Positions 15,901-63,783 of a DNA stretch of 64,000 bases are shown one piece after another. The DNA comes from a virus: positions 8,959-72,958 of IMG/VR virus record IMGVR_UViG_3300032267_001178; one strand, given 5' to 3'. The translations under genes and the position numbers were made by a program. The notes under the pieces are model-generated. The model was not told the origin of the DNA. It saw only the letters and a program-made list of their open reading frames with translations, and ran no database searches. Position 1 is the stretch's first letter. Each line of letters begins with the position of its first letter.

Positions 15901-16137
15901 GCCAACGCCATGCAAGCAAGGCCCCTTATTGTGTTATATGATTCTGTAGTAACCCTGTGTCCGATATCGGAAGCACAAAAGGTTGCGGAAATGCACCAAA
16001 TTTTTATGTGCGATATGAACACTTGGACAGTGGAAAATAGGACATTCAATTACCCTATTGACACGGATTACGTAAAACGATGGAGCACGAAACCAAACGC
16101 CGAAGAAAGGCTTGAACTCGATAGCGTTCTGTCGTAA
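12973..16137 (+). CDS. polA: Family-A DNA polymerase with 3'-5' exonuclease and an N-terminal UDG-family-4-like domain.
   Basis: ExoI FSVDCEWHG; motif A DYQTAEIRGLAFISGDENL; motif B RKGLGKVGNFSSAYGAS; motif C region LIVLYDSVV. N-terminal residues about 30-190 align to the UDG family 4 pattern (ECYFTAWCKW...PAIIVCLGGKKIFDEL). Confidence 0.85.
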   Translation: MEYQKRVYRNERPPDPKQPDYGERPPTKIDSTGYKKGGIYYVAGVGPKPAQIMFIAPSLLEEEAATKAESVTGRTITQDGAYLRGQAGAVFKDLASSVGIEMQECYFTAWCKWLLPKNNRSNPTNEQMDWGRQALMREIQEVKPAIIVCLGGKKIFDELSGITVKAKDVRGGWFLHHDSGAKVYLMENMALPLIKPEYLEKFRVDLRSICRLSMSLSGIDVYTQPTNYITINNSNEMQKLVAMWASKNIRLFSVDCEWHGSNHVNGQLRSIQFCWAPGEAVYIRFMDDALNYVFDVDYQKAGMLLGSWLNRPECKYIGHHFPADAPWMYSWLGLDWYNKCVFDTEFAQQTADEYEELGLERLAMKYTDLGRYDIELTLWKKQSKGLSSGGYGRVPDEILIPYACRDVDTVMRAYPYIYDNLRKQGLLDYYHEIFLPFTSNIFTTFSLLGLPIDIEQMSELRELYSFARQNLEVALRIAMHEEAKSLLLREMFLIKGNLTGPQTVELLELHKEVIGQIATGDDVDDPWMLVKRYVGVSGVARIKPFFDHLVASPSFNLRSKPQMMRWLFEVKGYMPIKSTNKKEKGLPSVSWDRVIRMPPEARKEYSPSTDIQTLEILYETHNDSVLGYLIRLNAVGNITKQFLKEPITDDEGNITQERGLHESLCSDGCVHGQMSTTETGRPRSWNPNILNWPSWVNDKITEGIQIALKQADAIGTLPEAFRKYLETKPPSIRSCVKAPDGWCFVESDYQTAEIRGLAFISGDENLIRIMTEPDQQYRKIKTENGQAKFVRVLFDNLLGISEELYGHLLSPDADFDVDAEGNYISPQADLHWSLAEMVTHKPREILNKDVERKGLGKVGNFSSAYGASPTTLERKIEQDTGVKPEEGTGQAVLDALRLRQPVAVAFLEHMENVPAEVGHYRSPSGRIRHCPMATAVGRDAKNYLASLGREMRNFPMQNNVADTAARAANWLLDYFVANAMQARPLIVLYDSVVTLCPISEAQKVAEMHQIFMCDMNTWTVENRTFNYPIDTDYVKRWSTKPNAEERLELDSVLS

Positions 16138-20209: not shown

Positions 20210-20753
20210 CTATACTATGGTTCGCAGGGTGGTTGATCCCACCCTGCGGGCTTACGCTTTTATCTATTCGCCACAATATGTTTCGGACGATAATAAATTG
20301 TTATTCCCGCACAATCCGTCGGACGTTCGGGAATTGAAATTTTCTTGGATGTATGTTGGACCTTCCGGGGTCGCATTGCCTGCTGAAGTACCTTTAACTT
20401 TTCATACAAATGCCGAAGAGGATATTGTATCAGTTTTGGGAAACTTGGTCAGTAGCGTATATCAACAGAACATTTATGGATTTTTTACGGTTCACGCAAA
20501 GTCCGTTTTTTCCAGAATGTACCGTTGGTATTGGTTACGAAAGCATCAGAATTCCATGGTAGCTTCTCACCTGAGCGATGTCGCAAAAATAACGATAGAC
20601 TTGTGCGAGGCGTTTCACTATCCTGCGGTACTCTCGTATGTTGAGCGTACAAGTTTTTGCGCGGATGATATTCAAGAATGGTTGAAGATATCAACGTCGG
20701 ATGTATCAGCTGAGCACGCCTTGTTACACGGCTTAGCTGCAAGATTACAATGA
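20202..20753 (+). CDS. Hypothetical protein.
   Basis: 183-aa ORF. Confidence 0.35.
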   Translation: MNDYTMVRRVVDPTLRAYAFIYSPQYVSDDNKLLFPHNPSDVRELKFSWMYVGPSGVALPAEVPLTFHTNAEEDIVSVLGNLVSSVYQQNIYGFFTVHAKSVFSRMYRWYWLRKHQNSMVASHLSDVAKITIDLCEAFHYPAVLSYVERTSFCADDIQEWLKISTSDVSAEHALLHGLAARLQ

Positions 20754-23407
20754 ATAATTTAGAATTAAGTATAAGAGACCGTTGGCCTGATCGCCCGGAC
20801 GAGCCCGATTGGGAACTTGTACGCAAGGGACTAGCCAATTTGGCCCCCGTGCTACAGCGTATGAAATATGACGGCTTACGGGAAGGTCAGGAGCCCGTAA
20901 TCATGCGGATCATGTCGCAGGCGGATACTATATGTATTTTGCCTACTGGTACCGGGAAGACTGCATGTTTTGTAATCCCGACTTTATGTATGGATTGGAA
21001 GGCTATTGTTTTCAGCCCACTGGTAGCGCTAATGCGTGACCAAGTTAAAGGATTGCATCGTATGGGTATTCCCGCCGCTGCGATGTCTGGGATGCAGACA
21101 GATGGGGAAAATCTTGATGCGGCCAGGCGTTGGCAGGACGGGGAATTAAATTTCCTATATGTCGCACCCGAACGCCTCAATAATGAGGCATTCAAAACCG
21201 CCATGGGGCACGTTAATCCCGACTTTGTTGTGATGGACGAATGCTTTGCCCCGGAAGTAGAAATATTTACAGACAAAGGGTTTGTTCGCTTTGACGCACT
21301 ACAGGACGACGCGAAAGTCGCTCAGGTCGATCCAGATACTAAGACCTTGTCTTTTGTTTCCCCTGATAAGGTGATTCGTCAGGAATACAAGGGAGACCTT
21401 ATACGCCTGCACTCTGGGCAGCTTTGTGATTTGCGTATGACCCCAAATCATGAGCTACTGGCTTTCTACGGAGATCGCTGGAAAAAGGAGACAGTCTCAA
21501 GGATTAAGTTCAATCACACGAAAAGACTTCTCGTAGCGGCAAAACATGAAGCGGGCAATCAAACCGAGCTTACCGCTATGGATAGGCTTTGCATCGCTTA
21601 CCAGGCTGATGGTAGTTCGCATTATGTACATCCCGACGAAAGTATCACTGCTGCATTTTCTTTTTCAAAGGAGCGCAAAATAAGTAGGTTTCTAAGTTTA
21701 CTTGAGCTCACCGGACTTTCATATAGTGAGGTGACCAATGAAAGAGAGAAATTGGATACGGGTAATCGTATCCCTCGCAGAAGATTCTTGGTACACAAGG
21801 TTTCTGGATTCTCTAAGGTCCTATCCAATATGTTTGACTTTGCATCTATGACCTCGGAAGTAGCTGCAGAGTTTATCCGCGAGGTCGCTCTATGGGATGG
21901 TAGTGAACCTTACCAGGGTTGCTTGTACTACTCCTCCATAATTAAGGAGAACGTAGACTTCGTACAGGCTGTAGCGATATTAGCAGGATATAAAACAAAT
22001 TTAGTACCCCAGCACGATGAAAGGTCTGCCAATTACTCCACAGTATGGCGTCTTTTTGTAAACACTGAGCGTGATTGGATTGGTACTCAGTGTTTGTCCC
22101 GCACCGAGGAATCTTATGACGGCCTGGTGTATTGCGTGCGCGTACCGCATGGGAACATTATTGTACGCGGTTCTGGGAAAGCCCTGGTAGTTGGAAATTG
22201 TCACACCTTATCCCAGTGGAGTGACAATTTTAGGCATAGCTATTGTAAGGTGGGCGATTTCATTCGGGAATACAATCCCAAGGTGGTAGCCGCTTTTACA
22301 GCTACGTGTCCCCAGCAGGTGGAGAACGATGTTCGCCGCGTACTGGGATTAGCGCACGCACGCAAACTCACCTTCTATCCCCGGCGCACAAATCTGGATC
22401 TTAGGAGCGATAATCTAGTAAGTGATATTTCTATAGCTGATAAAATCAGGGAGACGGAAGGTAGCACTATCGTTTACTGTTCCACTCGCAGAAAAGTTGA
22501 GGAGCTGGCTGAAACTTTGTCGCGGAACTTACGAGGTAAACAAGTAAGAATTTTCCACGGGGATCTTTCTCCAGGGGCTAAACGTGCGAACCAAGATGAT
22601 TTCATGGAAGGCCGCGCGAACATTGTTGTGGCAACTAACGCCTTTGGTATGGGCGTGGATAAGCCCGATGTTAGAGCTGTTATTCACCGTGATATTCCTG
22701 GTACTATCGAAGCTCTCGCTCAAGAGGTAGGCCGTGCCGGGCGTGACGGTAAATACTCGATCTGTATTACATACTTTTCTCAGGACAGTCTGGAAACGCA
22801 GAACTTCTTCTTACGTACAGGACATCCTCCTGTCGGCGACATAAAGAAAGTCTACCACGCGCTGAAACTCTCTGCTGATCGATCGGGCGTATGCAAGATC
22901 ACGGCCGATGAAATATCTACTAAAGCGAATGTTTCAAAATTTGGTATGCGGGCTATATTTGAGACCCTCAAGGGCTCTAACGTTATCGTACGTGACCAGG
23001 TAGATAAAAAAATATGCAAGCTTCGTGAAACAGATGCGGATGTACCTTCCGACAACGAGCGATACCACGACTACATGCGTGTAGTAGATAGCTTAGGTAT
23101 TCCGAACGATGAAGGATTTTATGAGTTCGATTTGAACGAGTTTGCCGACACCGTAGGCGTAGGGTACAGCACTGTGAGGGGCTGGTTTAAGCGTTGGGCT
23201 GAGAGCGGCTTCATTAGGTTTTGCGATCCTTATGTTGGGGCAGAGACTAGAATCATCGGAGACCTTTCTCTTGTTGATTTTGATCGCCTCGCTTTAAAAC
23301 GGGATGATGCTTACCGTAAACTTGACGACGTGCTGAAGTATGTAAATTTACCAGACTCGGAAAAACACGAGTTCATCGAATCCTATTTCCGCGTACATGA
23401 ATCCTGA
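20750..23407 (+). CDS. recQ: RecQ-family helicase. The reading frame includes an in-frame intein.
   Basis: Motif I ILPTGTGKTA; motif II split as VVMDE | CHTLSQWSDNFRHSY (cf. RecQ DEAHCISQWGHDFR); motif VI VATNAFGMGVDKPDVRAVIHRDIPGTIEALAQEVGRAGRDG. Confidence 0.8.
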   Translation: MNNLELSIRDRWPDRPDEPDWELVRKGLANLAPVLQRMKYDGLREGQEPVIMRIMSQADTICILPTGTGKTACFVIPTLCMDWKAIVFSPLVALMRDQVKGLHRMGIPAAAMSGMQTDGENLDAARRWQDGELNFLYVAPERLNNEAFKTAMGHVNPDFVVMDECFAPEVEIFTDKGFVRFDALQDDAKVAQVDPDTKTLSFVSPDKVIRQEYKGDLIRLHSGQLCDLRMTPNHELLAFYGDRWKKETVSRIKFNHTKRLLVAAKHEAGNQTELTAMDRLCIAYQADGSSHYVHPDESITAAFSFSKERKISRFLSLLELTGLSYSEVTNEREKLDTGNRIPRRRFLVHKVSGFSKVLSNMFDFASMTSEVAAEFIREVALWDGSEPYQGCLYYSSIIKENVDFVQAVAILAGYKTNLVPQHDERSANYSTVWRLFVNTERDWIGTQCLSRTEESYDGLVYCVRVPHGNIIVRGSGKALVVGNCHTLSQWSDNFRHSYCKVGDFIREYNPKVVAAFTATCPQQVENDVRRVLGLAHARKLTFYPRRTNLDLRSDNLVSDISIADKIRETEGSTIVYCSTRRKVEELAETLSRNLRGKQVRIFHGDLSPGAKRANQDDFMEGRANIVVATNAFGMGVDKPDVRAVIHRDIPGTIEALAQEVGRAGRDGKYSICITYFSQDSLETQNFFLRTGHPPVGDIKKVYHALKLSADRSGVCKITADEISTKANVSKFGMRAIFETLKGSNVIVRDQVDKKICKLRETDADVPSDNERYHDYMRVVDSLGIPNDEGFYEFDLNEFADTVGVGYSTVRGWFKRWAESGFIRFCDPYVGAETRIIGDLSLVDFDRLALKRDDAYRKLDDVLKYVNLPDSEKHEFIESYFRVHES
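21242..22198 (+). mobile_element. Intein of 319 aa with a LAGLIDADG-type homing endonuclease domain, inserted in helicase motif II.
   Basis: Block A CFAPEVEIFTDKG; block B MTPNHELLA (TxxH); LAGLIDADG-like LCIAYQADGSS and EFIREVALWDGSE; block F VPHGNIIV; block G KALVVGN followed by +1 Cys. Removing it restores DECHTLSQW. Confidence 0.8.
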
Positions 23408-25705: not shown

Positions 25706-25760
25706 ATGTATTCGCTCATTGATAACTTGCCTTGAGTGGGGTTATAGTAACTACGACATT

Positions 25761-28463
25761 ATGCCTGCGCCCGAAGAAATAGAAATGCCCCCCAATGTCA
25801 AATTGCGGGATTTTAGCGATTTTGACACTGCGCGGACAGATATCTACGACCGCACCAAAAAGGCTTTGATCTCATCTTACCCCATGTCTTGGGGAGGTGT
25901 GCGTATGGAAGTAGCAGATGTTGATTACGACGGGCCGGAGAATTTCACGTTAGACGAGCAGAAAAAGGCACTATTAGAGGAACGCCACTTGTCCCGCCGA
26001 CTACGCGGTACTGTACGTCTGTTTGATGAGAAGACAGGTGATATGCTTGATGAGAACAAGGTATCCCTGATGCGGGTACCTTACCTCACCAATCGCGGAA
26101 CCTTTATCCATGGTGGTAACGAGTACACCACCATCATGCAGTCCCGCCTTCTTCCCGGGGTTTACACCCGCAGGCAGAACAACGGTAATCTGGAAACGCA
26201 GTTTAATCTTAAACAGTCCAGGGGTGCTTTTCGGGTAGGCTTCGAACCCGATACCACTCAATACAGGCTTAAGCTTGGGCAGGCTAACATGCACATGTAC
26301 TCCCTGCTTAAAGACCTTGGAGTACCCGACGATCGCCTCAAAAAAATGTGGGGGGATGAGATATTTTCTGCAAATGCTGCTAAATACGACTCCCGTGTGT
26401 TTGATAAAGCTTACGAGAGGCTTGTGCCTGCAAGGATGCGATCCGCTGATGCTAGTCGTGAGGACAAGGTCAAAGCTGTCAGGATGTCACTGGACGACGC
26501 ACAGGTCAACGCCAAGGTAATCAGCAAGAATTTACCTAATCTTTTCTCGATGTCCAAATCTGCGGAGTGGCAGGCACGTTGGGCGGGCAGGGAAGTAATG
26601 ATGGAGAAAATTGCATCTCGCGCACACACCGAGAAGTTCAAGCCGGACCTATCTCCCGACGAATGCTTTGAAGCCTTCACGGATATGTGCATGTTTAAGT
26701 GTGCTGGGGAAGAGTGGGACGAAATTGATAACACCGGACCTGACACGAATTTTTCTCCGGATCTCAAACCTTCTGATCTGCAAGAACAATACAGCAACCT
26801 GTATGGGCGCGTAGGTAATAGACTTGCAGGGATGAGCTCTTGGCCAAAGGAATGGATGCCTCCTGGTAGTAACCAACTAGGTTGGTTAGACTGGTATTAC
26901 GGATACGCTGATGGTAAGCGTACGGGAGATGACGATAGACAGATAAAGAGATGGAAGTCCTTTAAGGCTAGACACTTGTCTCAATTCCTGAAAAACCCAA
27001 CCCCCAGAAGAGCCTACGCCTTACGTAACTGGGCGGTCGACCCTTTGGTATATCTGGACGAATCATCCGCTGACGTTTTGAAGCGTCAGATGGATGAATA
27101 TAAATCCAGCAAATTCAAAAAAGCTGCTAGCGAAGATGACAGAGCAGCACAATTGCAATTGCTACTCGAAGCCAAGTCGCACTCAGACGCCAAGCGCTAC
27201 GGGCACAAGCATTTTCTGATACAGCGCTCAATGACAGATCGCCCCACCGAATGGGTCATCGACTCTCCCGGAGGCCCGTATCCAGGAGTCACCCATGTGC
27301 CTACTGGCTTCAGATTGCACATGGCATCTTCTAAAATTCCGCCTACAATACAAGTAGACGAAGCTTATGCGTTATCGAAACAAGCCGTCGCTGAGGATTC
27401 TAGGCAGGCCATCCTGGCTAAGACAGCGAATGTTATACGTAATTATGGTGAAACTGACAGCGGGCGGGAAACTATGCTTGCTACTCCAGACATTGAAGAG
27501 TCTTGGGATCTGGATATTGGCGGTAACCCGGATACGTTGGTCCTTGGGCGTATAAATGACAAATCTCGAGTATATGCGCTACCTGCGACTGAGGACGACG
27601 TTGATCAATCACCCAGAGCGCATATCGCCGTCCAAGATTTTTCTGACAAAGTGTCTGAGATAACAGCGTTAAAAACCCGCACGGACCATAGGCGTAAGGG
27701 GTTGGCTTCCGCGCTGGTCACACTATTAGACATGCTAGAGGGGCAGGACAGAGCTTTTGTAGTGAAGCCAGATCCAATGGCCGATAAAGCCGTACCGGCT
27801 GACGTACTTCTAAAATTCTATAAAGACAGGGGTTTCCAATCTTGGGGGGACCATGGGTATCTAGCTAAATACCCGGGCCAGGAGAAAGCTGCATATAACT
27901 TCGTTGTTTCCGGCGAGCAGACTCAAGGGATGGGCCTGCGTAAGGAGTTCCACCAGATACTGGAAGAGCTGGGACATAAAGGTCTGGCCGTGAACAACCC
28001 GCACACTAATGAAGTCGAATTGTCTGTCGACGTGGAAGATCCAAGTACGGTATTGGACGAACTGGTAAAGCGCATCAAGGATAGGAAGGGTAAGGATATT
28101 TTTTACACCCCTTCTACGCACTCATCGGATTTACAGCCAATCACCGTCGATAACGCTACGCTGGAGAAGCTGAGGTATGCACACTACAACGCATACCTAA
28201 ACAGCTCTCACTTCGACCCAAACGATACCGACATAACTCCGGCGGACAAACACCGGAAGGATATCGCGATACGCTACCGACTGGAAGACACACCCGAAGG
28301 ATTGGTAGGACACGTCCCGGAGAGGGCCGCGCGACAACTGAGAGGGGAAGAGATGCCTTACTCGTGGATGCCGCAGCCGGTTGAGAAAGCTGCATCCTTT
28401 TCCCAAATGCTTAAGCAAGCATCCGAAGATTTAGAACAAGCACGCGCACGCCTTAATTCATGA
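25761..28463 (+). CDS. Multisubunit RNA polymerase beta-like subunit, N-terminal fragment. The track start at 25698 is TTG inside the terminator, so the first ATG is used.
   Basis: RGTFIHGGNEYTTIMQSRLLPGVYTRR...AFRVGFEPDTTQYRLKLGQANMHMYSLLKDLGV aligns to the bacterial RpoB N-terminal motif NGTERVIVSQLHRSPGVFF...LDFEFD...RRKLPATIILRALG. Confidence 0.7.
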   Translation: MPAPEEIEMPPNVKLRDFSDFDTARTDIYDRTKKALISSYPMSWGGVRMEVADVDYDGPENFTLDEQKKALLEERHLSRRLRGTVRLFDEKTGDMLDENKVSLMRVPYLTNRGTFIHGGNEYTTIMQSRLLPGVYTRRQNNGNLETQFNLKQSRGAFRVGFEPDTTQYRLKLGQANMHMYSLLKDLGVPDDRLKKMWGDEIFSANAAKYDSRVFDKAYERLVPARMRSADASREDKVKAVRMSLDDAQVNAKVISKNLPNLFSMSKSAEWQARWAGREVMMEKIASRAHTEKFKPDLSPDECFEAFTDMCMFKCAGEEWDEIDNTGPDTNFSPDLKPSDLQEQYSNLYGRVGNRLAGMSSWPKEWMPPGSNQLGWLDWYYGYADGKRTGDDDRQIKRWKSFKARHLSQFLKNPTPRRAYALRNWAVDPLVYLDESSADVLKRQMDEYKSSKFKKAASEDDRAAQLQLLLEAKSHSDAKRYGHKHFLIQRSMTDRPTEWVIDSPGGPYPGVTHVPTGFRLHMASSKIPPTIQVDEAYALSKQAVAEDSRQAILAKTANVIRNYGETDSGRETMLATPDIEESWDLDIGGNPDTLVLGRINDKSRVYALPATEDDVDQSPRAHIAVQDFSDKVSEITALKTRTDHRRKGLASALVTLLDMLEGQDRAFVVKPDPMADKAVPADVLLKFYKDRGFQSWGDHGYLAKYPGQEKAAYNFVVSGEQTQGMGLRKEFHQILEELGHKGLAVNNPHTNEVELSVDVEDPSTVLDELVKRIKDRKGKDIFYTPSTHSSDLQPITVDNATLEKLRYAHYNAYLNSSHFDPNDTDITPADKHRKDIAIRYRLEDTPEGLVGHVPERAARQLRGEEMPYSWMPQPVEKAASFSQMLKQASEDLEQARARLNS

Positions 28464-29308
28464 ACCACGTTGAAAGCCCAGTGCGGATCTCCCAACTCAT
28501 AAAGGCGGCTTCCCCCAAGTGGCTGCGCGTGGTTGAGCAGTTGTCGCGAGGTAATCAGCACAGGTTGGCTAATGTCATCCCGGCAGGCAAAGTACGACTG
28601 ACGTCCAAGAACCCTCTCGGCGTGGGCGCTGAGGGTGCCGTATTCCCCTCATTCACTGGAGGCGTTGGGCCTACGGCAACCAAGACTTTCTTCAAGAGTC
28701 CGTTATCTTCGGAGTTTACTAGCCCTAACGTACTCGGTCCTGGCAAAGTTACTAGCATGCTGAGTGACGTTGATATCCCCACGCGGGTTAACATCATGAA
28801 GAGTAATCCGGACATCTTTCCCAAGGTGTTCGCGCAGCATCCAACCGGCTACACTGTAGAGCGATTGCAGGAAGGTATATCTTCTTCCGCTCTGCGTGCA
28901 CGAATGCGCAGTTTAGTGCAGGCGTCGAAGAATTTGCAAAAACTTGAAACCACTCCGTATCGGACGGAGCAGCGCGGCTACTTAAATGACGAGATACGGA
29001 ATCTTTGGCGTACCGGTAGGCCGGAGGCTAAAAGTGTAGAACCTTTACGTTCGCTCCTCAATTCCAAGAAAAACACCCGAGGCGAATTGGTCGCTAAAAC
29101 CGATACTGAGAGGTATAAGATTAGGGATTTTAATTTAGACACTAGGCGCCCACACAATGTAATGTGGACTGCAGAAGGTCGCCCAGTAATTAGCGACCCC
29201 ATGCCTTTCAAGTTTCAACCTCTTGAAAAACTAAGGGGAGAGCACAAAGCCACAACGGAAGGAAGGAATCCTATCGATTATTTACGGCGTCTATTGGCAA
29301 ACCTCTAA
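28460..29308 (+). CDS. Probable RNAP beta-like fragment (poorly conserved lobe region), placed between two recognisable beta pieces.
   Basis: ATGA overlap with the upstream beta fragment. A single in-frame TAA separates it from the downstream beta fragment. No motif was recognised by eye. Confidence 0.4.
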   Translation: MNHVESPVRISQLIKAASPKWLRVVEQLSRGNQHRLANVIPAGKVRLTSKNPLGVGAEGAVFPSFTGGVGPTATKTFFKSPLSSEFTSPNVLGPGKVTSMLSDVDIPTRVNIMKSNPDIFPKVFAQHPTGYTVERLQEGISSSALRARMRSLVQASKNLQKLETTPYRTEQRGYLNDEIRNLWRTGRPEAKSVEPLRSLLNSKKNTRGELVAKTDTERYKIRDFNLDTRRPHNVMWTAEGRPVISDPMPFKFQPLEKLRGEHKATTEGRNPIDYLRRLLANL

Positions 29309-29326
29309 ATCGCCCCACATCCCACA

Positions 29327-30043
29327 ATGACCCGGGAAGACATATATAACATTATTACGAAGAATGCTGCGGTATCACCTGTCGTAAATGCATTACGTAA
29401 AACAGTACCCGAGGTGCAACCTCGCAAGGATCCTGACGACGATGGGGAAGAATACGCCCCCGTAGGTGTGGACGGGTTACTGGCTGCGACGGAGAAGCTT
29501 CTTGCTGTCAATAGAGGCTTAGAGCCTACGGACGAACGTGACAGCTTGGTATTCAAAAGATTTCATACCACGGATAAGCTTTTGGCGGAGCGCGTAAAGC
29601 TCGATGCTGACAAGACTCGCCAAAAGCTCATGTACATGTCGGCTAAACGCAAAAACCTAAAAATGTTGCATCCATTCATGTTTGATGGGTACGCAAATGG
29701 TATGCTTCTGGGTAATCCCCTCAGTGCGCCTTTGGAGGAGATAAACCCTCTACATTTAATGGAGCAGTCCAGGAGAGCGACCCAGATGGGACCAGGGGGT
29801 ATTGGTAGTGACCAGGCAATTACTGAAGATATGCAGGCCATTCATGGATCTCAGTTCGGATTCTTGTCTACGCTTGAAGGTCCAGAATCGGAAAAGATCG
29901 GTATCGACACGCGGATGGCGTGGGGAACTAAGATCGGTTCTGACGGGAAACTATACCAACTTTTCCGTCAAAGAAGTACCGGCAAATTAAAGTACATGAG
30001 CCCAGAAGATCTGGATGGAAAGACTTTGAAATTGCCTGATTAA
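29327..30043 (+). CDS. Multisubunit RNA polymerase beta-like subunit, middle fragment (fork / GPGG region).
   Basis: TDERDSLVFKRFHTTDKLLAERV (cf. DHLGNRRIRSVGE..ENQFR) and RRATQMGPGGIGSDQAITEDMQAIHGSQFGFLSTLEGPESEKIGI (cf. [44 protein letters not shown]). Confidence 0.75.
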   Translation: MTREDIYNIITKNAAVSPVVNALRKTVPEVQPRKDPDDDGEEYAPVGVDGLLAATEKLLAVNRGLEPTDERDSLVFKRFHTTDKLLAERVKLDADKTRQKLMYMSAKRKNLKMLHPFMFDGYANGMLLGNPLSAPLEEINPLHLMEQSRRATQMGPGGIGSDQAITEDMQAIHGSQFGFLSTLEGPESEKIGIDTRMAWGTKIGSDGKLYQLFRQRSTGKLKYMSPEDLDGKTLKLPD

Positions 30044-30050
30044 AAATTGT

Positions 30051-30917
30051 TTGCCTTTTCCTGCAGGTTCCTTTAAGTTGAGTTATCACCGCACGAACAG
30101 TTTAAATATAATGACTATTAAAAACATTTCTGGAAAAACCCTTACACTTAGTTTTGGGCGCTACACGCACACTGTTGCGTCGAATGGGACGCTGACTTTA
30201 GCGGAAGATCCTAAGACCATTGCTAATGTTTCGGATTATTTTTCTCGTGGGCTTATCCAGGTCGTGAAAGGTCCTGCGATTTCGGATTTGGGTACTGCCG
30301 CGGTGACTCCAAGTCATATTCTTGTCCACGTCAAGGCTGCTGGTACTGACGGCGACTATATCACCTTCACTCTCCCTGGAAAATCTCCTCAAATATTTGA
30401 GCTGAATAGCAACGGGGCGCTCACGATTGCAGATGCAACTTCTGTGACTATCGGAGCTAACGCTGGCGCTACGGCCGCCAACCTCAAAACAGCTTTTAAC
30501 GCTAACACCGTGCTTACTGCCGCGGGGTTTGAAGCTGATGAAGTTGTCAACCACACAACTGGTACGGTTGAGTCCTGGGTACTCGTAAAGGCGACTGGAA
30601 ACGTAGCGGCTACTGCTGTTACCGTTGAATCTTCTGTCACCGCGCGCTTCGCGGTCAGCACGGTCGCGGCAAACACCAACGAAACGCTCGGGCAGCAGAT
30701 TATTTATGTTCCTGCCGTGAATGGTACTACTCTGGTAGTGAAGACCGGATTTACTACGATCGTGCACTATACTGCGATTACTCTGAACGCTGATGGTACT
30801 ACTCTTAGTTATGACGGTACGAAGACCGTCACGGGCGGGTGCATTTTCTTTGATGACAACAATAGTACGGATCTTGCGTCGACTTCGCAGGTTATTGTCA
30901 TCGCTTACGGGCGTTAA
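30051..30917 (+). CDS. Hypothetical beta-rich (Thr/Val/Ala/Gly-rich) protein, possibly a virion component. An internal ATG at 30111 is also a possible start.
   Basis: 288-aa ORF with Ig-like or fibre-like composition. Confidence 0.4.
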   Translation: MPFPAGSFKLSYHRTNSLNIMTIKNISGKTLTLSFGRYTHTVASNGTLTLAEDPKTIANVSDYFSRGLIQVVKGPAISDLGTAAVTPSHILVHVKAAGTDGDYITFTLPGKSPQIFELNSNGALTIADATSVTIGANAGATAANLKTAFNANTVLTAAGFEADEVVNHTTGTVESWVLVKATGNVAATAVTVESSVTARFAVSTVAANTNETLGQQIIYVPAVNGTTLVVKTGFTTIVHYTAITLNADGTTLSYDGTKTVTGGCIFFDDNNSTDLASTSQVIVIAYGR

Positions 30918-32711: not shown

Positions 32712-34511
32712 ATGGCAGCCAACGGCGATTATCTGGCCCCTTTCACAAACGGAACAACGGGAAAGCAATTTAGCGATCCCTTCATGTTGCCGTCTAATGC
32801 TTCGTTTCCAACTGAGTTGGAGACTGCTTTGGATTTCTGTTTATACCTTTATTACATGAACCCTCAGTATCGGAGGGCTTCCATACGAGTGGTCAGCCAC
32901 TTCGTTACTGACGTTAACTTCACTGGCGAAGCCGGGGACGAACGTGAGCGGGACGAGTTGAGAAAATTCTTAGCTACCGATCTGGACCTCTGGGGTACGA
33001 TGTTGGAGCTGGGAGAAGAGTGGGCGGCTTACGGTAATGGATTCGTACGCCTGGATTTTCCCTTCAACCGCTTTTTACGCGACCCCCGAGGTAAGTACAA
33101 AGAATATGATTTGAGCATGTTCCCTACCTCCAAGGTCAAGTACCACTGGAAGGAGATGGTGTACGAGGTTCCAGACCCCATGCATACTCCGAATGGTGGC
33201 AGTGCCCAAAAGACGATTAAACTGAAGTTTATCGATCGTCCAGTTAAGGACATGTCCAAGATTAGATTCCACAAGCTGGATCCCAGATACGTTACTCTCC
33301 AGCATTCTTGGACTAGTAAGCGTACGCAAGTCATTTGGCGCTTTGAGCCCGAGCTGGCTAAGGCTGTAAAAGACGGCACGCTATATCAAGTCAATGATCT
33401 TCCGATGCCTATGCTTCAAGCTATTGCGGAAGACAAAGACTTCCTGTTTAAGGAGCATCAGATTTTCCATCTCAAGGCGCCCACTATTTCAGGTATATCG
33501 AATTACGGTTGGGGGCTTCCGGAGATCATCGCTAATTACAGATCCATACACCAATTGCAAGTTTACAAGAAAATCGACGAAGTGGTGGGCATGGACTACA
33601 TGCTTCCTTTCCGTATTTTCTCTCCACAGGTGAGTGGTAATGTGCAAGATGCGACCATTCAAACCTTGTTCGGACCTTACCGGGCAGAGATGAGTCGGAT
33701 GATCAAGGAGCGCAGGAAGGATCCCTTCTCAATGTACGCCCTGCCCTTCCCGGTTACTTATCAAGAGGTGGGATCACAAGGCAAATCCTTGACGCCTAAG
33801 GATTTGATGGAGTTCCAAGTGAATGATCTCCTGGACTCCATGGGTTACCCAGCGGAGCTTTTCCGTGGGTCCCTGCAAGTACAGCAGGTGCCTACGGCTC
33901 TTCGTCTGTTCGAGAATAGCTTTCACTTCCTACATCGTGGATTCGACCGTCTACTGAAGTGGACCACAGAGCGTGTTCTGGACTATATGGGACGTGAGCA
34001 AATTGGTGTGAGCCTTCAGCTTCCCAGAATGGCTGATGATCTTGAGAAGAGAAGCATTTACATGCAACTTGCGGCTGGGGCCGAAATCCCGCGACAAGTG
34101 GCGTACCGCCCTCTGGGCATCGACGACCCTGTCGAAGCTGCACGTCAACGCGCACAGGAAGATGCGGAGATCCAGAAAGAGGTTTCCAAAATTCAGCAGC
34201 AAGCCCAGAAGGAAATGCAGGAAGGTTCTATGGAGGGCGTTATTGCGGCACAACAAGCAGGTGGCGGTGGTGCTCCTGGTGGGGGTGGCGGTCCTGTCGG
34301 CAGCGGAAACCCTGTACGACTTCAGGAGGAAGCAATGTCTATTGCTCAAGAACTTATCGCTGCTGCGGATCCACAGGTAACTCGCCAAAAGCTAGCGGAG
34401 TTGGCAGTGAATCCAAATATGGAAGCTCTGGTGCGGAAATTCATGGAGGACATTCGCAGAGATGCGGCATCCCAAGGCCGCGCTTCGGCACCTCAAATGG
34501 TGCAAGGGTAA
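32712..34511 (+). CDS. Large hypothetical protein (599 aa), a possible virion structural protein of portal size. Its function is not supported by any motif.
   Basis: Long ORF with a C-terminal Gly-rich tract GGGGAPGGGGGPVGSG, followed by Gly-zipper and acidic proteins. Confidence 0.45.
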   Translation: MAANGDYLAPFTNGTTGKQFSDPFMLPSNASFPTELETALDFCLYLYYMNPQYRRASIRVVSHFVTDVNFTGEAGDERERDELRKFLATDLDLWGTMLELGEEWAAYGNGFVRLDFPFNRFLRDPRGKYKEYDLSMFPTSKVKYHWKEMVYEVPDPMHTPNGGSAQKTIKLKFIDRPVKDMSKIRFHKLDPRYVTLQHSWTSKRTQVIWRFEPELAKAVKDGTLYQVNDLPMPMLQAIAEDKDFLFKEHQIFHLKAPTISGISNYGWGLPEIIANYRSIHQLQVYKKIDEVVGMDYMLPFRIFSPQVSGNVQDATIQTLFGPYRAEMSRMIKERRKDPFSMYALPFPVTYQEVGSQGKSLTPKDLMEFQVNDLLDSMGYPAELFRGSLQVQQVPTALRLFENSFHFLHRGFDRLLKWTTERVLDYMGREQIGVSLQLPRMADDLEKRSIYMQLAAGAEIPRQVAYRPLGIDDPVEAARQRAQEDAEIQKEVSKIQQQAQKEMQEGSMEGVIAAQQAGGGGAPGGGGGPVGSGNPVRLQEEAMSIAQELIAAADPQVTRQKLAELAVNPNMEALVRKFMEDIRRDAASQGRASAPQMVQG

Positions 34512-34516
34512 TAAAC

Positions 34517-34843
34517 TTGGTTTTCGAAGAATTCGCTGTATACTTTCTAATGCAAATTCGAAGCGAAGCTCTTAGGAAAGCCTATGTTAGCGTAAAGGCC
34601 GCTGCAGTGGCCCGGACAATTCGACAAGTAGCTAAGACAACTCGCATGTCTGGGGGCAGCACACCGCACCCCACGCAAGATAACATCAGGGGCATTCCCA
34701 ACTCCCCGCGCAACTCCGACGAAACGGACCCGCAACGCCCCACGCAGCACTTGTTACCCACAGACCCGGAATTTAATACGGACCAGATTATTACAGGTAA
34801 TGGTTATGGTCCTTCATTGGAACGTAAACGGCAGTATCTTTGA
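34517..34843 (+). CDS. Hypothetical protein.
   Basis: 108-aa ORF. Confidence 0.3.
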   Translation: MVFEEFAVYFLMQIRSEALRKAYVSVKAAAVARTIRQVAKTTRMSGGSTPHPTQDNIRGIPNSPRNSDETDPQRPTQHLLPTDPEFNTDQIITGNGYGPSLERKRQYL

Positions 34844-35982
34844 TGAAAGGTCTACACAAGCAAGCTGAAATTTCTCAAACGGCGACCGCGGTGGGCGCTT
34901 TGGCTCTACCGCTAGTAGCGGACTCTGTCTTGTCTGCGGCTATGGGCCCTGGTGCCTATACGAAAGTAAAAGATCCTCATTCTTCCTTGAAAAGGGAGAC
35001 ACTGATGTACACCCCTGTAGCGGAGGCTACAGAACGTGTGCGGCAAGGTAAAGGATCTATGCTTGACCACATGCAGGCATATCGGCACCCGCTGCAGCCC
35101 CAAGCTAATCCAGCATATGCCATAGGGAACAAACTCGGCCCAGGTATTTTGTCCGGGGTTTCCAAGGCTTCGGATTTTTTATGGGGGCAAGGTTATGGGC
35201 AGAGTGGTGCTGCTGGAGCGGCTACGGGTACAGTCGCTGGTTTGCTGTTGAATGCCGTGCTTCGAGCGCAAGGCAAGTCGGAAATGCCCTACTGGCAATC
35301 AGCACTGCTTGGGGCTGGGATTGGGGGTGCTGCAGGTTTGGGGGGTTCACATCACCGCCAGTATTATCAAAATAAGTTCCCCAAATACGCTCCCGAAAGT
35401 AACCCGACCTTACCGGTACAAGCTCCGATCGGTGCGCCGTCTGCGGATACCCCCAGATACTTACCCGGCAGTGGTGCAGAATTCAGTTCTCCCCAACAAA
35501 CATCTACTCAAGGGGCACAGCCTAAGTTTTTAGGCATCCCTGCAGGGGATCTCATTGAGAAGCTGCGTTCTTTGCGTGACAAATTTCAGCCGCCGCCTCC
35601 CTCCCAACTGCAAAAAGCTTCTGCTTGGCGTAGTCCTGAAATGAATACGCAAGCAGCGCAAGCTTCTGTACGCTCTCTGATGTCTATGCTCCAAGCTGCG
35701 CCTGGGTTGTCGTTCAATCAGCGGGCACAGTTAATGTCAGGGGTAAGTTCTCTTGACGCAAATTCTGCCCGCGAGCTTCAACGCCTCGTTTCAATGTCCG
35801 GTGGTGCGGCTATTGGTGTAATCGTCGCAAGGTTCCTGATGGGTAAAGGACTAGGCGCCACGGTTCTCGGGGCTATGCTAGGCGGTGTTATGGGTAATGC
35901 TTTATTTGGAAATTCCCAACCTCGCACCTCTACAGGAAGGCCCTCTATGTCTGGGATTGATTTTAGTGGGAGAAGGTTTTAA
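34840..35982 (+). CDS. Hypothetical Gly/Ala-rich protein with glycine-zipper hydrophobic segments.
   Basis: GAAGAATGTVAGLLLNAV, LLGAGIGGAAGLGG and VLGAMLGGVMGNALFG GxxxG-type tracts. Confidence 0.4.
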   Translation: MMKGLHKQAEISQTATAVGALALPLVADSVLSAAMGPGAYTKVKDPHSSLKRETLMYTPVAEATERVRQGKGSMLDHMQAYRHPLQPQANPAYAIGNKLGPGILSGVSKASDFLWGQGYGQSGAAGAATGTVAGLLLNAVLRAQGKSEMPYWQSALLGAGIGGAAGLGGSHHRQYYQNKFPKYAPESNPTLPVQAPIGAPSADTPRYLPGSGAEFSSPQQTSTQGAQPKFLGIPAGDLIEKLRSLRDKFQPPPPSQLQKASAWRSPEMNTQAAQASVRSLMSMLQAAPGLSFNQRAQLMSGVSSLDANSARELQRLVSMSGGAAIGVIVARFLMGKGLGATVLGAMLGGVMGNALFGNSQPRTSTGRPSMSGIDFSGRRF

Positions 35983-35993
35983 CTTATAGCTCA

Positions 35994-36629
35994 ATGGAAA
36001 CTCACTCATATCGTTTAGGGATGGCTGTCGCCGCTGCTGTGTCGGGTTGCGATCCGGAGGAAGTGCTGTATAAAAAAGCTACTACGGAAACAATCTCAAA
36101 CCACCAGCTACCTGGTTACGGTGCGGTGCAGCGTATGATGTGTAAGTATGCCGCTGATGCTTACCGTAACTCGGGGAATATGGATAAATTGGCATTCCAT
36201 GTATACTCGGAGCTTGCTGAAGCAAATCCGTGGTGGCCGACACTTGATAACTATTACGATGCTGCAGTTTCGGCTGTCGGCAAAGTGCATCAAACCATAC
36301 GTAAGGAAGCAATGGTCACTGATAACGATCTTCGTTTTGAAAAATCTGCGATGGGTCCTGCTACGGCGACTGCATCTGCGCTGTTTAACTTAACACCTCA
36401 GGCAATAAAATCGATTCTTGCTTTAGGGGCGGCTACCGGAGTGGGCGGTGGGGCCTTGACTTGGCTGGCTAACCGCAGTATTGCTGAAGATGAGCCTAAG
36501 CTGGAAGCAATGAGGCAAAAGGTAGATTATTACAACCAGCTGACGGATGAAATTGAAGCCCAGCTTGCAGCGAAAAAAAGCCCTGTTTCAGAAAAAGAGC
36601 TGTCGCGCATTACCAGGGATATTATTTGA
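35994..36629 (+). CDS. Hypothetical protein.
   Basis: 211-aa ORF. Confidence 0.4.
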   Translation: METHSYRLGMAVAAAVSGCDPEEVLYKKATTETISNHQLPGYGAVQRMMCKYAADAYRNSGNMDKLAFHVYSELAEANPWWPTLDNYYDAAVSAVGKVHQTIRKEAMVTDNDLRFEKSAMGPATATASALFNLTPQAIKSILALGAATGVGGGALTWLANRSIAEDEPKLEAMRQKVDYYNQLTDEIEAQLAAKKSPVSEKELSRITRDII

Positions 36630-36658
36630 ATTAGAATGTTATTTTTTTACCCTGTAAT

Positions 36659-37156
36659 ATGAATGCTGTTTTGACGCCAGAAGAGTTAGAAGAAATTGAT
36701 ACGCATTTTGATTTGGGAGGGGGCGTAGCAAAAGATCCTTCCGCGTTGCACTTCGGACAGGTTGTTCCTGAAGAGTTGTTGCCGCAAGAGGAGCCTTCTT
36801 TAGAATACGAATACACCCCAGAGAGCAAAGCCTCACGCGACCCTGCGCGTCCGTACGACTTCTTCCTGGGGGAGGGAAATCAGAAGGAGTATTCGGACGA
36901 TCCGTCTTACGCGGACCAATATACGAGATATCCTGAGACCGTAAGGAAGGTAGGGCCCTTAATGGAGGTATTCGACCTCGCCAGCCCGGACAGTGTACTT
37001 GAGCTAAATAAGCTTATGGCCGGAGCACAGTCACATCATGCTCCCAGGTCTATGGTATTGATCCTGGACAAGCAATGGAGTGAAAAGACTGCAAATTGGA
37101 AAATTCTAGCACAAGTATACAAATTCAAGTATCTTAAGATCGTAGAAAAGAACTAA
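36659..37156 (+). CDS. Hypothetical acidic protein.
   Basis: 165-aa ORF. Confidence 0.4.
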   Translation: MNAVLTPEELEEIDTHFDLGGGVAKDPSALHFGQVVPEELLPQEEPSLEYEYTPESKASRDPARPYDFFLGEGNQKEYSDDPSYADQYTRYPETVRKVGPLMEVFDLASPDSVLELNKLMAGAQSHHAPRSMVLILDKQWSEKTANWKILAQVYKFKYLKIVEKN

Positions 37157-37166
37157 CCACACCAAC

Positions 37167-38498
37167 ATGGATCCTAGAGATAAACAAAAAATCGTCAAGC
37201 TTCTCACGGGCGGAGCTGCCGCAGGTACTTCTGTGGGGCTTTCAATCGCCTTGGCCAATTTTTTGAATTCTCTTTCCAAGGAGACTAAAACTCAAACTGG
37301 CGCGGACGACGATGTTTTGTATATCGATTTGCCCGCCGACGGTACCGCGAAAAAGGCTACTGCGGCGACTGCGGTTGGCTTGACTGGGGCGGTACTTACA
37401 GGCTTAGGCTCGCTTGCCTTGGTACGGGAGATTCAACAGCGTATCAAGCAGCGTGAGCTGCAACAGCGACTGGATAATGCGCAAGTCGCATACACTAAAA
37501 GAATCCTAGAGGAGGCAGAGGCGCAGAAAACGAAAAAAGCCTCCGATGCCCCGGGTGCACCTATATATCCTGGCGATGCTACATTGGCTACGCCGATAGC
37601 TGGTTTATTGCTTACGATGCTCGCCAGTGGTGCGCTTACGTACAAGGGACTTAACAAATATTTTCCAGGTGCCAAACCACCAAAGTCCATTGGTCCTAAG
37701 CGTGTAGTTGTTCGTCGAAAAGCAACCGAAAATCCCGAAGAAGATACTGAGGAGAGTATGTCCGAAGACGATATGTACAAGGCTTCCAGCATGGACGACG
37801 ACGCGCTGGAATCTTTGGTGAAAATTGCCATGAGCAATTCTTCTGCACATTCGGATTTGCGCGACATCGTTCATGCAGTCGCCCAGGGTAGGCATCAGGA
37901 AATTTGCGAGCATGGTCTGAGTCTGGGGGTCGAGAGCATGTTTGACGTAGTCAAGTCTGCTTCCTCTAAGGTTACGGATGCTTCTCGTATACAAATGGCG
38001 GTCACGCGTTGCGTGAAGTCTGCCTATCTGCGTCCCATTGTTGAAACATTGGCCTGCGCTGAGTTTTATGATATGGCGCCTGCTAGCGTGAAGCTGGCTT
38101 CTAGCTTTAGCGAAGAATCCAGGGACGCGTTGGTAAAGATTGCCGCTATTCTCGGCACGAGCGACCGTTATAGTTTTTGGTCCGAAAAATTAGGGGACGA
38201 GGAATTTTCCAAAGTGGCATCGATGGCTTTACCGGCCGCCGAGGATCCTGAGCTGGCATCGCTGCTGGATGAGGCTTTATTTGAAGAAGATCCTACGCAA
38301 ACTCCTATCAACATAGAGACCGAATCTGACATGTCTGAATCCCAATCAGACGCAGACGAGGATTATGAGGAGCAAGCTGAGGATGCTCGGGCAGACGAGC
38401 GTGAGGCCGAAGACGAAGATGCTGTAGATTCTTTGATGGGTAGTATCGCCGGAGGCGAAGGGCAATGGGCAGAAAACAAGCCAGAAGACTTAGAGTAA
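37167..38498 (+). CDS. Hypothetical protein with Gly-zipper segments, a coiled coil and a highly acidic C-terminus.
   Basis: LLTGGAAAGTSVGLSIALANFL; a coiled coil QQRIKQRELQQRLDNAQ; C-terminal DADEDYEEQAEDARADEREAEDEDAVD. Confidence 0.4.
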   Translation: MDPRDKQKIVKLLTGGAAAGTSVGLSIALANFLNSLSKETKTQTGADDDVLYIDLPADGTAKKATAATAVGLTGAVLTGLGSLALVREIQQRIKQRELQQRLDNAQVAYTKRILEEAEAQKTKKASDAPGAPIYPGDATLATPIAGLLLTMLASGALTYKGLNKYFPGAKPPKSIGPKRVVVRRKATENPEEDTEESMSEDDMYKASSMDDDALESLVKIAMSNSSAHSDLRDIVHAVAQGRHQEICEHGLSLGVESMFDVVKSASSKVTDASRIQMAVTRCVKSAYLRPIVETLACAEFYDMAPASVKLASSFSEESRDALVKIAAILGTSDRYSFWSEKLGDEEFSKVASMALPAAEDPELASLLDEALFEEDPTQTPINIETESDMSESQSDADEDYEEQAEDARADEREAEDEDAVDSLMGSIAGGEGQWAENKPEDLE

Positions 38499-62952: not shown

Positions 62953-63681
62953 ATGGGAACGCTTGCGCATTACATCATTGAGATACTTAGATTTTCCTGG
63001 CAGTGGGTGTATTTGTTTAGCCCGATCAAACTGATAATTGTTCGACAGGGCGAACTGGGCTTTCGCCGCACACTCGGCAAGCCCGGGAAGAATCTTGATG
63101 TTAACGGGAGATTTAGGGGTCTTTACTTTGCTACCACAGGACAAACTCTGGATGCGACTTACGCCCTGAATAGGAAAGCGGACATTGGTCCTGTCTCTGT
63201 ACCTTTGAAGGAATGCATTCCTATCGAAGCGTGGGCTGTCTTAGTCTTCGATATTGAAGACGTTGCTGCCTGGGCTAGTAATTGCGCAGACCCTTCTTGG
63301 CTCATAGGAGAGCTTCAGGAAGCGGAACTCCGCGAAGCCCTCATGCGCCACACATACGAAGAGTTAGCGGCAAACATGTACGGCGTTGAGCAAGAGGCAA
63401 TGCGGCAGGCACAGCAAAGAATTGATGATTTACAATTGGGCGTGCGGATTAAAAGTCTACGCCTTAAACTTTTACAGATTCAGGATAGTACCGCTCAGAA
63501 TGCTTTGATGTTGCCTCGTTTAGCTTCGGCTATGCAAGCAATTCCTGCGCAATTGACCGACCATAAAAACTTCGCTTCCATGGTTGGTTTACTAGTGGGG
63601 GCTAAGCCGGTCGTAACCATGAGCTCCTATTCCGGCTACGCGGTCAACGACGCGCAGCAAGATATAGCAAAGGCTAAATAG
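62953..63681 (+). CDS. Hypothetical protein.
   Basis: 242-aa ORF. Confidence 0.4.
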   Translation: MGTLAHYIIEILRFSWQWVYLFSPIKLIIVRQGELGFRRTLGKPGKNLDVNGRFRGLYFATTGQTLDATYALNRKADIGPVSVPLKECIPIEAWAVLVFDIEDVAAWASNCADPSWLIGELQEAELREALMRHTYEELAANMYGVEQEAMRQAQQRIDDLQLGVRIKSLRLKLLQIQDSTAQNALMLPRLASAMQAIPAQLTDHKNFASMVGLLVGAKPVVTMSSYSGYAVNDAQQDIAKAK

Positions 63682-63706: not shown

Positions 63707-63783
63707 GCACCCTTAGCTCAATCGGATAGAGCAACGGATTTCTAATCCGTAGGTTGTGGGTTCGAATCCCGCAGGGTGTGCCA
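63707..63783 (+). tRNA. tRNA-Arg (anticodon UCU) with encoded CCA.
   Basis: Cloverleaf: acceptor GCACCCT/AGGGTGT; D-arm GCTC..GAGC; anticodon stem ACGGA/TCCGT with loop TTTCTAA (anticodon TCT at 63741-63743); T-arm GTGGG-TTCGAAT-CCCGC; 3' GCCA. Confidence 0.8.

Follow-up and report, generated by a model that had tools for sequence, protein, structure and literature searches.

Multisubunit RNA polymerases (RNAPs) encoded by phages serve as markers of deep evolution and as minimal models of the enzyme of cells. Among the phages that carry them are the multisubunit-RNAP-encoding Caudovirales (mReC; Weinheimer & Aylward 2020, PMC7481178). The mReC beta subunit is a single chain that is usually joined to beta-prime, either to its N-terminal part (~1,500 aa) or to the whole of it (2,000-2,900 aa). 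In the cultured Salmonella phage Arash, gp206 is a protein of 1525 aa that comprises beta and the N-terminal part of beta-prime and holds the motifs GLHGNKG and ADYDGD; gp216 is the C-terminal part of beta-prime, and both are among the most abundant virion proteins (PMC10585845). Here we examine three consecutive open reading frames (ORF1, ORF2 and ORF3) in a stretch of 64,000 nucleotides (hereafter the window) from the viral record IMGVR_UViG_3300032267_001178, positions 8,959 to 72,958. The interpretation that we consider probable is that ORF1 and ORF3 carry two consecutive pieces of the N-terminal part of beta, called beta-N1 and beta-N2, of an RNAP of the mReC/Arash type, which is broken in the lobe and has gathered accessory modules at the break.

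The best phage relatives of both beta pieces are Arash, Vibrio phages of the D69 type (D69, D148 and D181) and unsplit beta proteins in IMG/VR, with identities of 26-41% overall and 33-41% for the IMG/VR proteins. A homologous portal gene close to the beta gene is also shared with these phages, and inteins and homing endonucleases abound in the family. In contrast to mReC phages, beta has one cut in the lobe and a second at gp206 residue ~469, the remaining subunits are not adjacent, the portal gene lies downstream of beta and not upstream, and beta-N1 bears clade-specific and variable modules. The replication genes of the window have no similarity to the compared parts of the Arash genome, where beta and portal were the only counterparts of window genes; a megablast search with the locus gave no match among GenBank phages. 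The mReC/Arash-type phage RNAP is supported as the closest known group by beta sequence and portal; genes for the major capsid protein and the terminase do not lie in the window. A first-pass annotation of the window had suggested a distinct lineage unlike phages phiKZ and AR9. The separation from phiKZ and AR9 stands; complete distinctness does not, as the nearest type is a known one and the portal is shared with Arash.

Beta-subunit homology of ORF1 and ORF3

We found that ORF3 matches the Pfam family RNA_pol_Rpb2_3 (PF04565) at 31.1 bits, the gathering score being 21; this Rpb2 domain 3 spans aa 136-202 (nt 29732-29932). In the PDB, ORF3 aligns with structures of bacterial beta, at residues 499-592 of the E. 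coli and 321-477 of the T. thermophilus subunit, and it retains SRRxxxMGPGG and LEGPES, the counterparts of bacterial RRxSALGPGG and ETPEG. Its end corresponds to residue 469 of Arash gp206 and to about residue 616 of E. coli beta. Beta-N1 carries RGTFIHGGNEY...RLLPGVYTRR. ORF1 as a single sequence gave no match to RNAP families of Pfam (Rpb2_1 and Rpb2_2 included), and it was the profile of ORF1 homologues (alignment A1) that matched residues ~23-198 of the RpoB chain 8syi_C (E 3.6e-8). A single phage family, PHROG 24349, matches both proteins: ORF1 aa 49-233 fall on profile positions 64-257, and ORF3 aa 129-204 on positions 468-542.

Mapping onto unsplit proteins locates the break. ORF1 aa 21-245 align with residues 12-250 of Arash gp206 (BLASTP, 31% identity, E 5e-22), and ORF3 aa 40-238 align with residues 259-469. 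In closer unsplit relatives from IMG/VR (phmmer), ORF1 aa 15-242/261 correspond to residues 12-241/260 and ORF3 aa 29-228 to residues 251-450. Because both mappings agree, there is a single break point, with ~10 residues between the two parts. In E. coli coordinates it falls between ~235, where ORF1 homology ends, and ~410-430, where ORF3 homology starts; we take this to be the lobe region in which bacteria carry lineage-specific insertions such as SI1. The sequence that is extra to beta, with no counterpart in unsplit proteins, comprises ORF1 aa ~261-900 (~640 aa), ORF2 and the first ~30-40 residues of ORF3, and the ~975 aa that separate the beta parts are not beta sequence in any frame. By homology, the first ~260 aa of ORF1 together with ORF3 represent the N-terminal ~45% of beta (protrusion, lobe and fork) in two proteins.

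The first-pass annotation had identified here the N-terminal part of a phage-encoded multisubunit-RNAP beta subunit, split over three ORFs and ending near E. coli residue 620. The identification is borne out by the matches to Pfam, Arash gp206 and PDB beta subunits, and the motifs quoted from ORF1 and ORF3 reflect true beta homology, as seen in the Rpb2_3 match, the PDB beta matches and the match of the ORF1-family profile to RpoB; the proposed end agrees closely with the PDB alignment. Fragmentation is likewise upheld, but it involves two ORFs with an unrelated gene between them and not three. ORF2, thought to cover the non-conserved lobe, shows no beta similarity, has a predicted kinase-like fold and is absent from this position in the more distant relatives that were examined. 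Hidden Markov model (HMM) searches for RNAP domains, proposed for all three ORFs, succeeded directly for ORF3, only through the family profile for ORF1, and not at all for ORF2.

The fragmentation is genuine, as the same layout recurs in independent assemblies. ORFs of 900, 282 and 238 aa are 100% identical in one Logan, one ENA and one JGI assembly, of which the ENA and JGI contigs start inside the C-terminal cassette of ORF1 and cover the 3' part of the cassette, ORF2 and ORF3. Four more assemblies, whose nucleotide sequence is 97% identical, keep all three ORFs. The ratio of nonsynonymous to synonymous substitution rates (dN/dS), computed between the two strain groups, is 0.045 for ORF1 aa 1-540, 0.064 for ORF2 and 0.067 for ORF3. 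Strong purifying selection acts on all three ORFs, which are real genes.

Relatives that share the split

Homologues of ORF1 form at least 260 protein clusters, on contigs of up to 224 kb. The split architecture was found in 28 IMG/VR contigs, with beta-N1 proteins of 400-1130 aa and beta-N2 proteins of 235-990 aa, and the end of beta-N2 in these contigs invariably corresponds to Arash residue 469. The same end is kept in two cases where beta-N1 and beta-N2 are fused (P0072, 763 aa, and L051, 503 aa); in loci L014, L024 and L030 beta-N1 adjoins beta-N2 with nothing between. In every split-clade locus examined, the portal gene follows beta-N2 at a distance of 2-6 kb, whereas in Arash, and in mReC-type loci that are unsplit or fully fused, it is found immediately upstream of beta.

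In relatives, beta-N2 contains LAGLIDADG inteins of two classes at two sites, after the residues aligned with Q170 and E187. Their first residue is Cys and they end in GN followed by Ser, and both sites lie within the RRxxxxGPGG/EGPE motifs. Inteins typically occupy conserved sites of essential enzymes. Because these inteins sit in the most conserved motifs of beta-N2, their position argues that beta-N2 is part of an active polymerase.

Other arrangements were seen outside the split clade. Many phage contigs in IMG/VR (L128-L150, L237-L355) fuse beta and all of beta-prime in proteins of 2,000-2,900 aa, often with inteins, and other IMG/VR lineages split the gene elsewhere, at beta-C profile positions ~315 and ~457.

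Modules gathered at the break

Module borders in ORF1 (Table 1) were drawn from alignment A1 and local HMMs, which divide it into five parts, the first being beta-N1 together with its tail (aa 1-~300). The tail that follows beta-N1 has a conserved NLPN[LM]F...W block, after which repeated F-x-P-D-L-x-P linkers flank the modules. The Trp-rich module had no match in Pfam, PHROG or PDB, and in L037-L043 it is a separate ORF of 138-250 aa between beta-N1 and beta-N2. ORF1 aa 279-427, a stretch that overlaps most of this module, has a weak tblastn match (28% identity, E 4e-4) in a largely unannotated stretch of the 232-kb Vibrio jumbo phage pVa-21 (L151 3001-3462; KY499642.1 46838-47299). The small shuffling module is present in 54 of 120 ORF1 homologues and also within the unrelated multidomain proteins P0241, which has an HEAGH zincin motif, and P0262; it may be an adaptor or targeting module. 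We also observed it in separate proteins of 250-550 aa encoded a few kb upstream of unsplit beta genes (L081, L083, L099, L105, L120 and L127, positions ~50-1760).

The C-terminal cassette of ORF1 varies between nearly identical strains. The strains of the four assemblies at 97% identity have 46 nt in place of its 1090 nt, so that their ORF1 is only 552 aa long. Within the cassette, a GNAT-like region (aa ~585-700, motif DHRRKGLASALVTLL) contains HRRKGLAS, acetyl-CoA motif A being R/Q-x-x-G-x-G/A. Three Pfam GNAT families match this region below their cut-offs (E 0.007-0.075), and its four weak PDB matches (E ~0.5) are all GNATs. The module that follows (aa 696-886) is ~60% identical to parts of P0241 and P0242. 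A combined homology search for the cassette and ORF2 found only two proteins.

The variable region of the 46 longer ORF1 homologues contains InPase (14), Acb1 (13), 2H phosphoesterase of the 2'-5' RNA ligase type (12), KH (4), NUDIX (3) and ATP-dependent ligase with LigD 3'-phosphoesterase (2) domains, together with GNAT, AAA_18 and PNKP-type phosphatase domains. This census, the presence or absence of the cassette, and the modules shared with P0241, P0242 and P0262 reveal a variable multidomain architecture in which conflict-related enzymatic domains sit on a common anchor. Insertions also occur in unsplit beta. In L073 (IMGVR_UViG_3300017987_000001), where beta and the N-terminal part of beta-prime form an 1846-aa ORF, an in-frame insertion of ~390 aa (4177-5400) with sub-threshold 2H phosphoesterase matches lies exactly at the junction, and in L109 an insertion of ~190 aa lies at the same junction. 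Because these two proteins are unsplit, the lobe junction is a hot spot for insertions in intact and broken chains alike. The break serves as a slot in which accessory domains are exchanged fast; this most unusual trait of the locus had escaped the first-pass annotation. In relative L006, a protein of the Acb2/Tad1-hairpin family (an anti-CBASS/anti-Thoeris sponge family) is encoded just downstream of beta-N2, at 13554-13928.

ORF2 has no similarity to Arash beta and no Pfam or PHROG match. A full HMMER scan recovered homologues in 52 clusters, mostly proteins of 200-490 aa, a few being domains of proteins of more than 900 aa that also bear the small shuffling module or 2H-like motifs. Conserved positions are G54xG56xE58G59, K75, D223, N233 and D246, motifs of the kind expected for the Gly-rich loop, the beta-3 lysine, the catalytic Asp/Asn and the metal-binding Asp of kinases. 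An AlphaFold2 model built with the alignment (pLDDT 81, pTM 0.71) was used in place of the single-sequence model, which was discarded (pLDDT 40). In a Foldseek search of the PDB, all top matches of the model have the protein-kinase-like fold (choline kinase, Hck, Btk, Src and Lck), with probabilities of 0.8-1.0 and TM-scores of only 0.25-0.34; among viral structures, a protein kinase from a T7-group Yersinia phage comes closest (E 0.02). We assign ORF2, with moderate confidence, as a divergent kinase-like enzyme that is not part of beta. Close relatives keep it, and a kinase-like ORF also lies downstream of beta-N1 in L018, a relative at 69% identity; the more distant relatives that were examined have no ORF2 between their beta genes.

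The remainder of the polymerase

The window and all fetched loci were searched with two profiles, one for the C-terminal part of beta with the N-terminal part of beta-prime (A2) and one for the C-terminal part of beta-prime. Regular-expression motif scans, tblastn, phmmer (with Arash gp206 and gp216) and the profile HMMs all failed to detect the C-terminal part of beta (beta-C) or beta-prime in the window, which confirms the absence reported in the first-pass annotation. Nothing resembling residues 470-1525 of Arash gp206, or gp216, was present in the window, in the 10 kb upstream of it (L010) or in the 10 kb on each side of beta-N1 in ~30 relatives. In scans of IMG/VR with A2 and with a 291-aa beta-prime-N alignment, the best 80 matches were all unsplit proteins, and these scans are uninformative on the split clade. 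A DNA pattern for GYxADFDGD is equally uninformative here: among 120 matches listed there were giant-virus GVMAG contigs, and HMMs applied to the listed matches found mostly fully fused beta/beta-prime ORFs. With an AAA protein as anchor to go past the right end of the window, no relative was found; a link to L264 through an AAA protein was rejected as generic AAA similarity.

Scattered subunit genes are normal in phiKZ-type phages (PMC7598289), and the remaining subunits are presumably encoded elsewhere in the genome of ~200 kb. An alternative, which we regard as unlikely, is that beta-C and beta-prime are truly absent and that the beta-N pieces work outside any phage polymerase, the N-terminal part of beta being a scaffold for effector domains or a factor that binds the host transcription machinery. 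The 74 kb of this phage that were read, and the surroundings of beta-N in ~30 relatives, contain no beta-C or beta-prime, as would then be expected, and L054-L060 in IMG/VR have a 241-aa gene for beta-N1 alone, with no beta-N2, beta-C or beta-prime within 10 kb. Yet beta-N2 conserves the motifs by which the fork domain touches the RNA-DNA hybrid, these motifs are homing sites for inteins, as is typical of essential catalytic proteins, and a beta fragment cannot stand in for part of the single-chain host beta. Moreover, ~125 kb of the presumed ~200 kb genome lies outside the sequence read, and phiKZ-type phages have dispersed RNAP genes as a rule (PMC7598289).

Origin of the split

Could a mobile element have made and maintained the split? 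Were a group I intron, a free-standing homing endonuclease or a split intein responsible, the intervening sequence would be selfish DNA and the beta parts would be rejoined by RNA or protein splicing. Intron mobility has been proposed as the origin of split phage RNAP genes (PMC7598289), and inteins are frequent in this gene family, with a probable one in the helicase of the window. In Vibrio phage D148 (L152; OZ196545.1 144073-149587), beta and the N-terminal part of beta-prime are in pieces of 514 aa and 1006 aa separated by small ORFs and a homing endonuclease gene, and in D69 (L002) the gene is intact (1527 aa); this pair shows how such genes get broken. At the break between ORF1 and ORF3 in the window, however, we found no intein block, endonuclease domain or intron RNA: no intron family was detected in the window, none of the three ORFs has an endonuclease or intein domain, and the start of ORF3 lacks an intein C-terminal block. 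The intervening modules are themselves conserved and under purifying selection, and we consider this origin quite improbable.

An RNAP of the phiKZ/AR9 type, from either the virion or the non-virion set and with an extra split, is less probable again. In that group, as in the enzyme proposed here, beta and beta-prime are present as several polypeptides without alpha or omega, the subunit genes are scattered, and both split beta and an enzymatic HD domain on a beta fragment are known, the latter from the virion RNAP of Bacillus phages (PMC7598289, PMC7824862); contigs of the split clade reach jumbo size (up to 224 kb). No closer sequence relationship to the group is detectable, however. PDB-chain searches gave only bacterial and plastid beta subunits, with no phage RNAP chain at E<=1, and YerA41 matches only weakly in comparison with Arash and the D69-like phages. 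The split positions differ, as does the replication module, which has a family A polymerase and DnaB and not the split family B polymerase of phiKZ/AR9-type phages, and the window contains a single beta copy where those phages have two.

Finally, frameshift or assembly errors in one ordinary rpoB-like gene, which tight packing (an ATGA overlap and an 18-nt gap) and the unsplit versions of 1450-1500 aa in relatives could suggest, and which would have undone the first-pass annotation, are refuted by identical ORF boundaries in seven assemblies from different samples and pipelines, by strong purifying selection on all three ORFs, by the non-beta character of the intervening sequence in every frame and by the same split in ~28 IMG/VR contigs.

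Proposed explanation

We propose that a gene of the mReC/Arash type was interrupted within the lobe of beta, at a surface position that would also accept the in-frame insertions of unsplit relatives. The break would have gathered the Trp-rich and the small adaptor-like modules, on beta-N1 or as separate small proteins, and rapidly exchanging enzyme domains, represented here by the putative GNAT-like cassette on ORF1 and the free-standing, kinase-like ORF2. Beta-N1 and beta-N2 would then associate, by non-covalent contacts, with beta-C and beta-prime proteins whose genes would lie in other parts of the genome. As neither of these was found near beta-N, assembly into a complete polymerase is something that we infer. 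By analogy with Arash, and given the homologous portal gene nearby, the beta pieces and the enzyme they belong to are probably packaged in the virion. Because of this probable packaging, the accessory enzymes could be delivered with the polymerase or act next to it, in the manner of polyvalent proteins, and their early role in the infected cell would be to modify proteins of the host or to process nucleotides and RNA ends.

Several points weigh against this explanation. Neither beta-C (double-psi beta-barrel, GDK..G.KG) nor beta-prime (ADFDGD) occurs in the 64-kb window or in the 10 kb upstream, and the A2 and beta-prime-C HMMs found neither within 10 kb of beta-N1 in ~30 related contigs. The GNAT assignment of the cassette is sub-threshold, the kinase assignment of ORF2 draws on motifs and on fold matches of low TM-score, and virion packaging is argued from a relative that is only 26-31% identical.

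More tentatively, and with rather more doubt than confidence, we suggest that the beta lobe has become a modular docking and display site, by which a core subunit was turned into a carrier for interchangeable enzymes. The 2H/Acb1-like, InPase, NUDIX, ligase/3'-phosphoesterase, GNAT and kinase activities might thereby be placed beside a virion-borne RNAP at the onset of infection. If so, early transcription would be coupled to counter-defence, host shut-off or RNA-end processing. Enzymes that travel with the polymerase would constitute a new delivery route for anti-defence and host-takeover functions, and a natural case of co-transcriptional enzyme tethering in a bacterial virus.

Locus layout and neighbouring genes

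Every large ORF of the window is on the + strand, and the neighbourhood is a phage replication module with SbcCD, two helicases, DnaB, a primase, a fusion of uracil-DNA glycosylase, exonuclease and PolA, and a UvsX-like recombinase. The single-strand gene orientation and the PolA/SbcCD/DnaB surroundings noted earlier are thus confirmed by the ORFs of the window. Coordinates of the locus features are given in Table 1.

Table 1. Features of the split beta locus and the nearby portal gene (window coordinates).
Feature	Position	Strand	Details
ORF1	25761-28463	+	900 aa
Beta-N1	25761..26540	+	ORF1 aa ~1-260 (beta homology ~15-260); protrusion/beta1 and first part of lobe
Clade-conserved tail and acidic linker	26541..26747	+	ORF1 aa ~261-329; alignment A1
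Trp-rich module	26748..27122	+	ORF1 aa 330-454; split-clade-specific; alignments A1, A7
Small shuffling module	27141..27353	+	ORF1 aa 461-531; ...THxPTGFRxH...
Strain-variable C-terminal cassette	27381..28470	+	ORF1 aa 541-900; GNAT-like region and another module
ORF2	28460-29308	+	282 aa; start overlaps ORF1 stop in ATGA
ORF3	29327-30043	+	238 aa; 18-nt gap after ORF2
Beta-N2	29327..30043	+	ORF3 (beta ~29-238); rest of lobe/protrusion and fork domain
Portal protein	32712-34511	+	599 aa; BLASTP against Arash portal gp204, E 3e-44 over 575 aa

The DNA polymerase I-type gene (12973-16137, +) joins an N-terminal domain of the uracil-DNA-glycosylase superfamily to 3'-5' exonuclease and polymerase domains. 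The product of the DEAD-box helicase gene at 20750-23407 (+) has 885 aa, compared with 556-591 aa in relatives; its residues ~163-492 have a match to a PHROG that contains inteins and a weak one to Pfam Intein_splicing, and on these matches the insert is probably an intein. The gene next after ORF3 (30051-30917, +) encodes an Ala/Thr/Val-rich protein of 288 aa, of which the close strain L021 has a 268-aa version; its dN/dS between the two strain groups is 0.47, against ~0.05 for its neighbours. After the portal gene, four genes at 34840-38498 (+) encode low-complexity products, Gly/Ala-rich and hydrophobic or very acidic, without database match, which might be scaffold or ejection proteins. 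The idea that they are highly diverged RNAP pieces was rejected, given this composition and the lack of RNAP motifs.

A Shine-Dalgarno-like sequence is absent before ORF1 (25741-25760) and ORF3 (29309-29326), which may point to a host in which Shine-Dalgarno pairing is dispensable. Host labels from a scan of GTDB genomes (Lysinibacter and Izimaplasma metagenome-assembled genomes) were rejected as too unreliable. Between 46000 and 50000, GC content falls to 41% (~48% elsewhere in the window) and there are only small ORFs. A tRNA-Arg(TCT) lies at the extreme right end of the window (63707-63783); same-strain contigs in other assemblies likewise end shortly after the SPFH gene (62953-63681), and this shared stop could mark a repeat or a genome terminus.

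Comparison with known systems

In an abundant clade of at least 260 clusters, beta tolerates a break in the lobe, and the exposed ends recruit enzymes that vary between near-identical strains. HMM screens that demand full-length beta and beta-prime, as for the mReC definition, may miss such lineages. Bacterial beta subunits offer a partial parallel: E. coli beta has the lobe insertion SI1/beta-In4 at residues ~225-343, and in both cases the break or insertion point lies in a lobe region that tolerates large insertions. The bacterial insertions, in contrast, are fixed structural domains within one chain, whereas here the chain is broken and the material is enzymatic and strain-variable.

The kinase-like ORF2 and the GNAT-like cassette recall the T7 gp0.7 kinase and the phiKMV acetyltransferase Rac, which modify the host RNAP (Rac: PMC7552054). 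This likeness is at the level of fold and motif only, and the genes described here stand beside the phage's own polymerase gene.

The open-access literature yielded no paper on a multisubunit RNAP beta fragment as a polyvalent protein, or on the split clade. The polyvalent-protein concept itself covers the N4-type virion RNAP fused to effector domains, and it also covers InPase, a typical domain of such proteins for which packaging is predicted (Iyer et al. 2017, PMC5512222). InPase, NUDIX, GNAT and zincin domains belong to a shuffling pool that polyvalent proteins share with ORF1 homologues. The ORF1 domains of the window differ in being only weakly recognisable, and what would carry them here is part of a multisubunit, double-psi-barrel RNAP and not a single-subunit enzyme of the T7/N4 type. 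If the beta lobe does serve as a docking site for exchangeable enzymes, this clade would provide the multisubunit counterpart of the N4-type polyvalent virion polymerase.

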